Virus record (IMG/VR): IMGVR_UViG_2740892230_000016
Length of the DNA: 64,000 nucleotides
Reading direction: 5' to 3' (one strand)
Origin: a virus
Taxonomy: Duplodnaviria > Heunggongvirae > Uroviricota > Caudoviricetes
The position numbers and the translations under genes are program-made. Position 1 is the stretch's first letter; every line of letters begins with the position of its first letter. This document shows, piece by piece, positions 52,966-55,385 of the stretch. The notes under the pieces were generated by a model that worked only from the letters and a program-made list of their open reading frames with translations, made no database searches and was not told the DNA's origin.

Positions 52966-53919
52966 TCATTCAGTAGAGTAGGGGCCAAGAAATCGCACTC
53001 CGTTGAAGTGAATAAGATGAGAAGGTGCATCAGCCACCCATACCTCTGTTTCCCATGCGATTTCACCAAGATATCGCCCCATGATGGAGCGATTTGGAAA
53101 AGCGGTCACATAGACAAGTCCGGCTGTTGATCCGGCAAACAGCCTGGCAAGCTCAGCATGCCGCTTCCCATCAACCGGTCCATGACTGGTGACAGACTCA
53201 ACCAGTAGCAGCCAGTTTTTCGCAGTAAAATGTAGCACCACATCTGGCATTTTACCGTGTGAATCCACATCAACACCTAGCCCGGCCAGCAGTGGAGCGT
53301 CGAAGTAGCCCCACTTTTCGCCAGTGTCGCCAGCATAGACCAGCACGCTACCCGGAGCAAAACGTGGGGCGAAGTCCTCTATTATGGCACGGATAAGTTC
53401 GCTGTGCTCGCCGGGACTGAGGGTTATTTGCTGGCCCGCAGCAATTTCAACAGGGATACGATTCTGTTCGCGCTCCTTAGCATAGCGGGTAACCAGCGTT
53501 TCACGCTCGGCTAAATAGGTTGCAAGGCTATCGTGCCATGCCGGGCTGCCGAAAGTGCGTAGCATGGACAGAGCAGCAGGTTCGATCTGATAAACAGCCT
53601 TCGGGCTGTTCACTGGGCGATCGGGCTTGTCCGGATTGTAGAGGGCTACTCCAGCAGCGCAGAACTGATGCATAGACTGGCGGCGGAATGTCTCACGAGT
53701 ATTGGGTGCGTAGACCTTGCCGTAGTGCTCCCGAACCCAATTCATGATTGGTGTAATGCCCACAAGCGGATTTTCCGCGTCGGCCCATGCTTTTCCCGGT
53801 GTGAGGTTCAGGAGTGCCAGCAAACACAAAGCAGAACGCTCATTCTGCTGCGCTCTGGGCAGGCCTAAGGATGCTATAATTTGCTGAGCGGCCTCAATAT
53901 AATCATTTTGGTTGTTCAT
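52966..53919 (-). CDS. Type II restriction endonuclease, BsuBI/PstI-like
   Basis: 317 aa; overlaps the upstream methyltransferase gene by 4 bp; size and order as in PstI-type R-M pairs; family call by recognition, not search. Confidence 0.5.
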   Translation of the reverse strand: MNNQNDYIEAAQQIIASLGLPRAQQNERSALCLLALLNLTPGKAWADAENPLVGITPIMNWVREHYGKVYAPNTRETFRRQSMHQFCAAGVALYNPDKPDRPVNSPKAVYQIEPAALSMLRTFGSPAWHDSLATYLAERETLVTRYAKEREQNRIPVEIAAGQQITLSPGEHSELIRAIIEDFAPRFAPGSVLVYAGDTGEKWGYFDAPLLAGLGVDVDSHGKMPDVVLHFTAKNWLLLVESVTSHGPVDGKRHAELARLFAGSTAGLVYVTAFPNRSIMGRYLGEIAWETEVWVADAPSHLIHFNGVRFLGPYSTE

Positions 53920-55385
53920 GCAGTCAGAGCTCCTAGCTTAGCGTCAATATGTTCTTGCGTGAGAGTTTCTTGTTGCATAGCCCACTTGCCAAGCTCTATC
54001 AGAGTGTCACGGCTTGGGTACTTAATCATCTTGAGGTCGGTTGCATTGACCTGTGTATGCCCGTTGAAGCGACGGAAATACTTATCCACTGCGGTAGTGT
54101 TCAGGAACACGGCCAAGCCACGGGCCAGCGCCTCGGGTAACCCATGTTTGTTCTCATGAAACACGTTCATGTGATTTTCAAATCCCAACACTGAATACTC
54201 ACTGAAGGTAGCAGGATCAACGACGCTTGCTACCACTCGGCGCTTTTCCTCCTTCGACGAGAAACGACGCACCACACAATAAAAACCGTTCGGGTAAAGC
54301 CACTTTTCTGTCTCGTCGTTGCGCATGATTGCGTTGGGTTTCTTCAAACCTTCCACAGGCCAGACAGTGCTACTCATACTCAAATGGCTCGGGTAGATCA
54401 GGGGAACAGTTCCTTCTTCTGGCATGCTGCGCAAATGAGCTTTCAGTCGGAAATCAACTATCGGTCCGGTCGATACCTTCACGCCAATATCAGCCAGCGA
54501 ACATTGTACGGCAGATGATAACTCAATGGTGCTTTTCTCGAGCGTGGTCGGCACATGAATAAACCGCTCCGAATCGTCCGGGTACACAATCTGGTCAAAT
54601 GGGTGTTCGTAGGTGACTAGGTCAAAAAAGCTATCATCGGTCGAAGTTGTGACTGTAACAGCCTCCTGACGGCCTCCACGCTCCAGGCGGATGATAATAT
54701 TTTCCTGCAACACATCGTCATCCCTGAAAGCTTTGCTACGTGATTCGAACAAATGAATATGGCGGATTGCTGCCCGCTCAAGTATGAAATTACGGAACGG
54801 ACGGTAATACGGTCCGTTGCAGAAACTACGTGGGATTATGGCCACTATCTGCCCGCCAGGTGCAACCTCACCTACAGCCAGTGCAACAAAGGCGGAATAC
54901 AGATTTACCGTCTCGATACCGACAGTGCGAAGAGCCTGCCGGTGGGCTGACTGGCTATTGATCTTCTTGTAAGGCGGATTAAGTATTGCATGGGTATAAC
55001 CTCGATCCTGTAGACCTTCGGCGGTTGCCAGCTCAATATAATCCCCTTCGATGATGCGGGGCGTCACTCTCCTGTACCCGGTTAAGTGCTTCGCAAGGTG
55101 ACCACACAGCTTTTTGTCGATTTCGTAGGCTGTTGCCTCGACAGACTCAAAGCCAAACTCGCCAACCAGCCAACGGTCGAGGAAGGCGCAAGACAGTGCG
55201 CCTAAACCAGCGCCTGCGTCCAGTAGACGGCAAGTTTTCATTGTGCTCGGTGGAAACAAGGAGGCCATAAAACGGGCCACGCCAGAAGGCGTCATGAACT
55301 GGCCGAACTCTGCTTTGTGTTTACGCGCGGTACGGGGAGACAGCTCGCGACGCACGCTGTCTGCGACGTCTAGCTTTTGAAGCAT
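53916..55385 (-). CDS. N6-adenine DNA methyltransferase (Eco57I/PstI-like, gamma class)
   Basis: 489 aa; motif X QFMTP, motif I LDAGAGLGAL, motif IV ILNPPYKK. Confidence 0.8.
   Translation of the reverse strand: MLQKLDVADSVRRELSPRTARKHKAEFGQFMTPSGVARFMASLFPPSTMKTCRLLDAGAGLGALSCAFLDRWLVGEFGFESVEATAYEIDKKLCGHLAKHLTGYRRVTPRIIEGDYIELATAEGLQDRGYTHAILNPPYKKINSQSAHRQALRTVGIETVNLYSAFVALAVGEVAPGGQIVAIIPRSFCNGPYYRPFRNFILERAAIRHIHLFESRSKAFRDDDVLQENIIIRLERGGRQEAVTVTTSTDDSFFDLVTYEHPFDQIVYPDDSERFIHVPTTLEKSTIELSSAVQCSLADIGVKVSTGPIVDFRLKAHLRSMPEEGTVPLIYPSHLSMSSTVWPVEGLKKPNAIMRNDETEKWLYPNGFYCVVRRFSSKEEKRRVVASVVDPATFSEYSVLGFENHMNVFHENKHGLPEALARGLAVFLNTTAVDKYFRRFNGHTQVNATDLKMIKYPSRDTLIELGKWAMQQETLTQEHIDAKLGALTA

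Follow-up and report, generated by a model that had tools for sequence, protein, structure and literature searches.

The 64,000-nucleotide stretch analysed here (the window) contains a restriction-modification (R-M) gene pair immediately left of the repressor gene cI of an Stx2a prophage, and this placement raises the question of whether the two genes belong to the leftward early operon that is silenced by the repressor, or to a unit that is active in the lysogen. A preliminary description had regarded them as first genes of the pL operon, located where an N gene would normally sit and transcribed leftward from an operator-like palindrome.

The gene pair and its family

Both genes are encoded on the minus strand. 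The first, M.EcoGIII, is an open reading frame of 489 aa (53916..55385) that starts 94 bp from cI and has the hallmarks of an Eco57I-type N6-adenine DNA methyltransferase with the target CTGCAG. The three motifs that had been named initially are all present, with QFMTP at aa 29-33 (55287-55301), LDAGAGLGAL as motif I at aa 55-64 (55194-55223), and NPPYKK, which contains the NPPY of motif IV, following at aa 136-141 (54963-54980). The assignment is supported by the Pfam family Eco57I (PF07669, E 3.3e-9, exceeding the curated cut-off), the PADLOC model MTase_II (5e-248) and PHROG 1600, which spans the full length of the protein. The second gene, R.EcoGIII, is an open reading frame of 317 aa (52966..53919) encoding a type IIP endonuclease of the BsuBI/PstI family, composed of an N-terminal HTH and a C-terminal PD-(D/E)XK domain. 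Both domains are covered end to end by their Pfam profiles (BsuBI_PstI_RE_N, PF17728, winged-helix/HTH, E 1.2e-54, profile positions 3-139 of 140; BsuBI_PstI_RE, PF06616, E 4.6e-61, profile positions 1-153 of 154), and the protein is recognized by PADLOC as REase_II (1.6e-168). In NCBIfam, no model reached its cut-off for either protein. The stop codon of the methyltransferase and the start codon of the endonuclease share an ATGA (53916..53919, minus strand, gcATGAac), confirming the described 4 bp overlap, with an AGGAG located 10 nt upstream, an arrangement that probably couples the translation of M and R.

Restriction enzymes of the same class include PstI from Providencia stuartii and BsuBI from Bacillus subtilis, which both act on CTGCAG, share the endonuclease families PF17728 and PF06616 and are paired with the same class of N6-adenine methyltransferase. 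Those systems are chromosomal and found in other genera, whereas the cassette described here is phage-borne inside an immunity region, and the genes of PstI are divergent, compared to the tandem, overlapping M and R genes of the prophage. In several phage records, the pair is labelled as BsuBI or PstI enzymes, and a homologue search with the endonuclease returned, among the matches listed, solely near-identical proteins from E. coli. The endonuclease also aligns end to end (aa 8-315, E 1.2e-77) with SdaI (PDB 2IXS), which has the same two-domain layout and an 8 bp site (CCTGCAGG). The acidic catalytic residues are kept, with PD (aa 225-226) and E241 aligned to SdaI D233 and E248, whereas Lys251 of SdaI is replaced by Thr.

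This replacement, and the existence elsewhere of derivatives that have lost all but a 3' fragment of R, could be taken to indicate that the methyltransferase is effectively an orphan, followed by an inactive or unrelated remnant. In the window, the endonuclease reading frame is of full length and complete in both family domains, and the identical gene has been published as biochemically active and restricting (PMC6602927, PMC3893438, PMC4288162), so that the orphan reading, to which we assign practically no probability, has already been refuted by published work on the identical sequence. It is solely for this published activity that we judge the Thr to be harmless.

Relation to EcoGIII and its carrier phages

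The region between 52800 and 56600 is 100% identical over 3,801 bp to the Stx2a phage P13374 of E. coli O104:H4 and likewise to phiON-2011 and other O104:H4 phages, in a comparison that provided 74 phage matches at ≥99%. The cassette itself (52900-55480) is 100% identical over 2,581 bp to O104:H4 2011C-3493 and is found in 139 of 5,426 complete E. coli genomes. Its location is chromosomal in all of these, and wherever the match extends to 55480, its edge carries the annotation of a cI-type (LexA-family) gene. The exact endonuclease protein is encoded on at least 1000 contigs, including the C227-11 entry. Elsewhere, deletion derivatives retain just a 3' fragment of R. In comparison to EcoGIII of E. 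coli O104:H4 C227-11 and P13374, the genes M, R, cI and cro are nucleotide-identical, the pair is found in the same place beside cI, and the cassette is without any difference, which by identity extends to the specificity for CTGCAG. Judged by its sequence, the R-M pair is the already characterised PstI-like system EcoGIII of the Stx2a phage from the 2011 O104:H4 outbreak, and its carriers are O104:H4-type Stx2a phages of the genus Oslovirus. The cassette is already published, and two papers have noted its position left of cI in the absence of an identifiable N.

The primary description of EcoGIII (Fang et al., 2012) is referred to here as it is represented in later work (PMC6602927, PMC3893438, PMC4288162). 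CTGCAG is the site at which M.EcoGIII methylates and its cognate endonuclease cuts, and together they give protection against lambda-like phages (PMC6602927). Biochemical activity has been reported for the identical R gene (PMC3893438), and plasmid transfer into recipients is likewise subject to restriction by the system (PMC4288162). In lysogens, 100% and 98.8% of the CTGCAG sites were found to be methylated (PMC6602927, PMC3893438), the latter value in an Stx2a lysogen (PMC3893438), and EcoGIII was reported to alter the expression of ~1,900 host genes (PMC6602927, citing Fang et al., 2012). As shown by identity to the published system, M.EcoGIII is expected to methylate the adenine of CTGCAG and R.EcoGIII to cut the unmethylated site. 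For the identical system, the proposed role in defence has been documented (PMC6602927, PMC4288162), and there the cassette equips the lysogen with a CTGCAG methylome and restriction of incoming phages and plasmids, which is textbook-level knowledge for this phage group.

Within the window, the prophage adjoins P1-like plasmid sequence across a gap of 10 N, a junction that probably results from joined draft contigs. The prophage part contains 2 CTGCAG sites against about 5 expected, a difference that is not significant, and the P1-like part none against about 11 expected. We have rejected the avoidance of CTGCAG as a footprint of the R-M system, since many other 6-bp palindromes are absent from the P1-like part as well and the depletion is thus not specific.

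Probable location of the cassette between cI and pL

To the right of the cassette, cI (55480..56193, minus strand) encodes a repressor with HTH_3 and S24 peptidase domains, as identified with Pfam and annotated in P13374, and is followed by Cro. This repressor is the one studied as 'BAA2326', and the operators OR3 (56203-56220), OR2 (56224-56240) and OR1 (56247-56262) are exact matches to its DNase-footprinted sites (PMC5977221). In promoter scans, the -35 element of pR was located at 56236, with the -10 element ending at 56264.

Proceeding leftward from the end of cI at 55480, M and R (55385-52966) are followed by an intrinsic terminator (52947-52926, minus strand), which was detected in a terminator scan and consists of an 8-bp GC-rich stem followed by TTTTTCTTT, with a fold energy of -14.5 kcal/mol. 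The terminator, which is also conserved in PhiR12_3 and has an equivalent in F004, would end the cI/R-M unit before pL. A candidate for this leftward promoter was identified behind it in a consensus scan (52795..52823, minus strand, TTTACA-17-TATATT, 10/12). It aligns with the annotated -35 and -10 elements of phi80 pL, and its PWM score of 13.1 is the second-best on the minus strand of the 9-kb contig. In the heteroimmune F004, this position is taken by a separate TTGACT...TATATT. Homology to heteroimmune relatives ends precisely at the candidate pL (at 52801 in the case of F004), whereas the homoimmune PhiR12_3 retains this promoter.

A candidate OL operator, ATATAACTTGCGGTGATTT (52796..52814), emerged from a search with a symmetrised OR3 pattern, which in the whole window matches only this site and OR3 itself (0.19 matches expected). 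It shares TGCGGTG with OR2 and ATAACT with OR1, and it is kept in the homoimmune PhiR12_3 but replaced in the heteroimmune F004. The overall similarity to OR is modest, with the local alignment score being reached by 27 of 500 shuffles. Two papers, PMC5977221 among them, described OL as not readily identifiable in these phages. The usual locations of OL and OR were placed 3.2 kb apart (PMC5977221), a spacing that locates OL beyond the R-M genes.

The nutL and boxA that were looked for on the minus strand are found beyond R as well, in form of a phi80-type nutL (52651..52715) with its boxA TGCTCTTTA at 52707-52715 and a boxB core CACGTAAACGTG at 52651-52662. The surrounding stretch is 94% identical to phi80 32955-33142, where the boxA and core of nutL are annotated. 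The boxA constitutes the sole minus-strand GCTCTTTA in the prophage part, and the boxB core has a single copy in the window, where a search for a second one (nutR) found none. With these elements, we propose concrete coordinates of OL/pL and nutL for a stretch where the literature had found no operator.

Because the pL-like promoter, the operator-like site and nutL are located beyond R, behind the terminator, we place the cassette in the slot between cI and OL, which is occupied by rexA-rexB in lambda and by gene 40A in phi80. The common features of this slot, a position bounded by the 3' end of cI and by OL/pL, the strand of cI and a terminator before pL, are all found here. The earlier assignments, as first genes of the pL operon and as occupants of the site of N, are both at odds with candidate pL, OL and nutL elements at 52651-52823, on the far side of the cassette. 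The cassette would thus be part of the immunity region, with the 3' end of cI on one side and the leftward early promoter with its operator on the other, and, in light of this position, it would be cargo expressed in the lysogen. Similarly, rexA-rexB and gene 40A are expressed in the repressed prophage and act against incoming DNA, although the mechanism is classical type II restriction in the present case and abortive infection in the Rex type. This assignment of the R-M genes to the repressor side corrects the map and, together with the proposed coordinates, would be useful for modelling induction and Stx2 release of these 'hair-trigger' prophages.

The opposing reading takes the palindrome in the spacer between cI and M as OL/pL, with M and R as first genes of a cI-repressed leftward operon in which they replace N. 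The palindrome, previously given as 55427..55465, was recovered in an inverted-repeat scan at 55426..55466 and is a real inverted repeat, with arms of 15 nt (55426-55440 and 55452-55466) that are 93% complementary, 11 nt apart and each contain TTGACA. The arms are identical in PhiR12_3 and F004, while the loop diverges. The adjacency of the R-M genes to cI and the failure to find an N homologue are compatible with such an operon, and so are two accounts in the literature, where N was not identifiable and the R-M genes, left of cI, were described as residing 'at the corresponding region' of missing early regulators or 'instead' of OL and N. The operator-like character of the palindrome did not hold, since it shares nothing with OR beyond TTGACAT and the local alignment of the spacer (55386-55479) with the footprinted OR yields a score of 14 that is equalled by 343 of 500 shuffles. 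Its length of 41 bp also compares poorly to the OR sites of 16-18 bp. With respect to transcription starting from the palindrome, neither TTGACA has an acceptable -10 element at a distance of 15-19 bp, the best PWM score of 6.8 is at background level and the consensus scan detected nothing there, whereas the stretch left of R, behind the terminator, offers a better-scoring promoter together with an operator-like site and nutL. Finally, a repressed pL operon would not account for lysogens that are restricting and carry the published 100% and 98.8% methylation of CTGCAG. We thus consider it very improbable that the palindrome is OL/pL.

Expression of the cassette and the leftward operon

For the cassette in the slot between cI and pL, we regard expression in the lysogen as highly probable, most likely by read-through from cI. 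In the proposed mechanism, the PRM transcript would most likely continue through cI and across the hairpin formed by the palindrome into M and then R, whose translation is probably coupled to M, and would stop at the intrinsic terminator just upstream of pL. In the lysogen, the two enzymes would then restrict phage and plasmid DNA that enters without methylation, in line with the published activity of the identical system. The co-transcription of the three genes is suggested by the expression in lysogens and by the lack of a good promoter in the spacer, where the PWM scan found no score above background, and read-through from cI fits the full methylation in repressed lysogens. As RNA, the palindrome would form a strong hairpin (-24.7 kcal/mol), which is not a canonical intrinsic terminator, because a U-tract is missing on both strands, and which could attenuate the read-through. 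For rexAB, co-transcription with cI is proven, whereas for cI, M and R it is inferred.

In the same slot, M and R might instead be transcribed from a weak constitutive promoter of their own, located in the spacer or in the 3' end of cI and independent of PRM, with the hairpin marking the end of the cI transcript. Own promoters are common in type II R-M cassettes, and weak candidates such as TTGACA-15-GAATGT at 55465-55439 can be recognized. In PhiR12_3, which has lost M by deletion, the hairpin arms stay next to cI, and this assigns the hairpin to the cI unit. However, none of the promoter candidates exceeds the background, as 39 sites score ≥6 on the minus strand of the 9-kb contig, and the hairpin without U-tract does not resemble a canonical terminator. 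An independent promoter thus appears rather unlikely, and we favour read-through from cI.

The preliminary observation that no convincing N-like gene is visible was upheld, as tblastn with phi80 N found no match and no N family was recognized in the leftward ORFs that were scanned with PHROGs. Two candidates for N were rejected. An ORF of 65 aa (52621-52818) has its ATG inside the -35 of pL, spans nutL, has no Pfam match and is homologous to a phi80 stretch annotated as non-coding, and 'ORF26 antitermination' of P13374 belongs to the ORF6N / anti-repressor families. A phi80-type nutL is thus present without any detectable N homologue. Further along the minus strand, Rfam identified an isrK-like RNA (52378-52453, 61.8 bits, gathering score 50) and a C4 antisense RNA (52266-52353, 77.4 bits, gathering score 45), which are followed by Ash/Rha-type antirepressor genes (PHROGs anti-repressor families). 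Of all minus-strand promoter scores in the contig, the two highest belong to a strong promoter of the isrK-like RNA (52460-52488, minus strand, score 15.9) and to the candidate pL. This stretch is a neighbour of the R-M genes in the leftward operon and lies outside the R-M cassette.

On a tentative basis, and with somewhat less than even confidence, we propose a wider scheme, in which the R-M genes reside on the repressor transcript, with a dosage that would track the autoregulation of PRM and fall on induction, and in which the hairpin would set the ratio of cI to R-M. The ~1 kb stretch described in the literature as non-coding, with OL and N not identifiable, would hold OL/pL and the phi80-type nutL, and N would be replaced by the isrK-C4-antirepressor module. 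If true, the phage would contain a leftward operon without N and a pair of OL and OR operators, separated by ~3.4 kb, with the R-M genes between them. Both the isrK-like and the C4 RNA are also annotated in F004.

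Identity and activity of the restriction-modification pair

The two genes reside on the minus strand, where the open reading frame of the methyltransferase M (M.EcoGIII, 53916-55385, 489 aa) overlaps by ATGA with that of the endonuclease R (R.EcoGIII, 52966-53919, 317 aa), in agreement with the preliminary description, and all three motifs named there are found in M (QFMTP, residues 29-33; LDAGAGLGAL, 55-64; NPPYKK, 136-141). M matches the Pfam family Eco57I over its curated cut-off and the PADLOC type II methyltransferase profile with 5e-248, and R covers the full profiles of two BsuBI/PstI endonuclease Pfam domains (1.2e-54 and 4.6e-61). 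The structure of SdaI (2IXS) aligns nearly end to end with R (residues 8 to 315, 1.2e-77) and shares its catalytic PD and E residues, whereas Lys251 of SdaI is replaced by Thr, MEAVKS of SdaI corresponding to VESVTS in R (residues 240-248; 53176-53202, minus strand). An enzyme of identical sequence, bearing this Thr, has been described as active (PMC3893438). The earlier assignment to a PstI/BsuBI-like type II pair thus stands, with R carrying both domains and M being no orphan beside a dead partner.

The pair is the EcoGIII system. Over 52800-56600 the sequence agrees at 100% identity with P13374, an Stx2a phage from the 2011 O104:H4 outbreak, and at 99% or more with 74 phage records that name the two genes as BsuBI or PstI enzymes (methylase and endonuclease); the cassette itself shows no difference from its counterpart in O104:H4 2011C-3493 (100% identity). 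Among 5,426 complete E. coli genomes, 139 contain the cassette, in all cases on the chromosome, with a cI-type (LexA-family) gene annotated at the edge of the match in every E. coli hit reaching 55480, and the exact protein sequence of R is found on at least 1,000 contigs, strain C227-11 among them. The identification is correct, but the system was already known and experimentally characterised. Identity and literature together establish that M and R are specific for CTGCAG and active in the lysogen, where 2,390 of 2,390 CTGCAG sites are methylated (PMC6602927); 98.8% methylation and biochemical activity of an R gene of identical sequence are described in PMC3893438. EcoGIII is reported to protect against lambda-like phages and to affect about 1,900 genes (PMC6602927). 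In recipient cells it lowers plasmid transfer (PMC4288162).

Position relative to cI and the candidate OL and pL

The repressor gene cI (55480-56193; HTH and S24 peptidase domains in Pfam) is followed by Cro, and the right operators OR1-3 (56203-56262) exactly match the footprinted sites of PMC5977221. The R-M genes had been read as transcribed from an operator-like palindrome between cI and M. This palindrome is physically present (arms 55426-55440 and 55452-55466, 15 nt each, 93% complementary), and its similarity to OR consists of the heptamer TTGACAT alone, with 343 of 500 shuffles scoring equally well. Since a promoter PWM scan also finds no usable -10 for either of its TTGACA elements, transcription from this site is not borne out. 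As RNA it forms a hairpin of -24.7 kcal/mol without a U-tract. In the homoimmune relative PhiR12_3, a deletion has removed M together with the 5'-terminal two-thirds of R, and both arms stay beside cI around a different loop, which indicates, on sequence grounds, that the palindrome is part of the cI unit, where it may serve as transcript end, processing site or attenuator. In the heteroimmune F004, the loop contains one extra base. In the deletion derivatives, PhiR12_3 (4524-5055) and five E. coli genomes, R is reduced to its final ~300 bp, and the hairpin arms next to cI are identical around differing loops; M was lost jointly with the catalytic portion of R. An addiction role of the pair is plausible on general grounds, the one support for it here being this joint loss in the deletion variants seen.

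Nor is the earlier reading of the R-M genes as the first of the leftward pL operon supported, since a terminator, a pL-like promoter, an operator-like site and nutL all lie to the left of R. A terminator scan places an intrinsic leftward terminator (52947-52926, -14.5 kcal/mol) directly after R. Left of it, promoter scans find a candidate pL (TTTACA-17-TATATT, 52823-52795, minus strand), which together with 52488-52460 constitutes the top two minus-strand PWM candidates in the unbroken 9-kb piece that carries both the R-M genes and cI (51810-60885). A search of the 64 kb with the symmetrised footprinted OR3 returned just two sites (0.19 expected), OR3 and a candidate OL operator at 52796-52814. 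The pL -35/-10 and CI operators of the phi80 record align with this promoter. F004-type heteroimmune relatives, whose cI differs in its DNA-binding half, are identical across the transcribed leader and diverge exactly from the pL-like promoter on, in place of which they have their own TTGACT...TATATT, and the operator-like site of the window is kept in the homoimmune PhiR12_3. The regions where OL and OR typically lie were reported to be 3.2 kb apart (PMC5977221), a distance that locates OL on the far side of the R-M genes. The same work described no readily identifiable OL or N and ~1 kb of apparently non-coding DNA after R-M, and operators and cII/cIII homologues were not found in this phage type in PMC4587872; our sole increment is a proposed position for OL/pL and nutL within DNA in which neither study found an operator. 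A 97-aa ORF in the cII position (56523-56816, plus strand) matches PHROG 852 (function unknown) and no Pfam family, and contains the arginine-rich stretch RKGNRARRSANTRLR.

We propose that the R-M pair occupies the cI-to-OL slot, which in lambda holds rexAB (PMC5977221) and in phi80 gene 40A (phi80 record). A weak promoter of its own appears a less likely driver of the pair, as the PWM scan finds the cI-M spacer and the 3' end of cI at background only. The pair would rather be transcribed by read-through from cI, with translation of R coupled to M via the ATGA overlap and the transcript ending at the terminator before pL. Read-through from cI is consistent with the full methylation of repressed lysogens, whereas a location behind a cI-repressed pL is not. 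In heteroimmune relatives, the slot contains two extra overlapping genes behind R-M, between R and pL (F004 6618-7468). Their products of 127 and 156 aa match PHROGs without assigned function, and the longer one resembles a Panacea/DUF4065-type antitoxin. With these genes, the slot appears to be a place that collects cargo.

A phi80-type nutL and the place of N

The segment 52528-52715 is 94% identical to phi80, whose record annotates the boxA and core of nutL exactly there, thus locating a phi80-type nutL on the minus strand (52651-52715; boxA TGCTCTTTA at 52715-52707 and boxB CACGTAAACGTG at 52662-52651, by phi80 alignment). On the minus strand of the prophage part, GCTCTTTA is confined to the nutL copy, and the boxB core occurs once in the window, which holds no second copy as nutR. 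As already noted from the sequence, no convincing N-like gene is found, neither by tblastn with phi80 N nor in PHROGs and Pfam scans of the leftward ORFs tested. ORF26 of P13374, annotated as 'antitermination', was rejected as N because it belongs to ORF6N/anti-repressor families; the 5' end of this gene carries an sRNA-Xcc1 Rfam match (51221-51304, minus strand; 79.6 bits, gathering score 53). In the place of phi80 N we find a strong sigma-70-like promoter, the best of the contig (52488-52460), followed on the minus strand by an isrK-like RNA (52378-52453) and a C4 antisense RNA (52266-52353), both above the Rfam gathering score, and Ash/Rha-type antirepressor genes. Together they form a control module for antirepression that is like immI of P1. 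The nutL in a phage without a detectable N homologue may be either a relic or used by another factor.

Mosaic composition of the window

The window combines a P1-like part (1-45220) with a Stx2a prophage early region (45231-64000). Positions 31199 to ~44330 align at 98-99% with the fetched part of the P1-like phage-plasmid pSBF45b, in a mapping that covers the window from 26000 on; shared features include a Cre-type integrase, C1 repressor, phd/doc, HumD and PmgS. Nine runs of 10 N (at 1677, 45221, 50868, 51800, 60886, 61142, 61555, 62105 and 62254) separate pieces, some of just 139-540 bp, that are not colinear with P13374. Since, in addition, the junction between both parts occurs in no complete E. 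coli genome, their adjacency probably arose artificially when draft contigs were joined. CTGCAG is absent from the P1-like part, compared to ~11 expected sites, and since AGCGCT, CCGCGG and GCCGGC are absent as well and GGCGCC and AAGCTT occur once each, this absence reflects a broad avoidance of 6-bp palindromes and not a response to EcoGIII.
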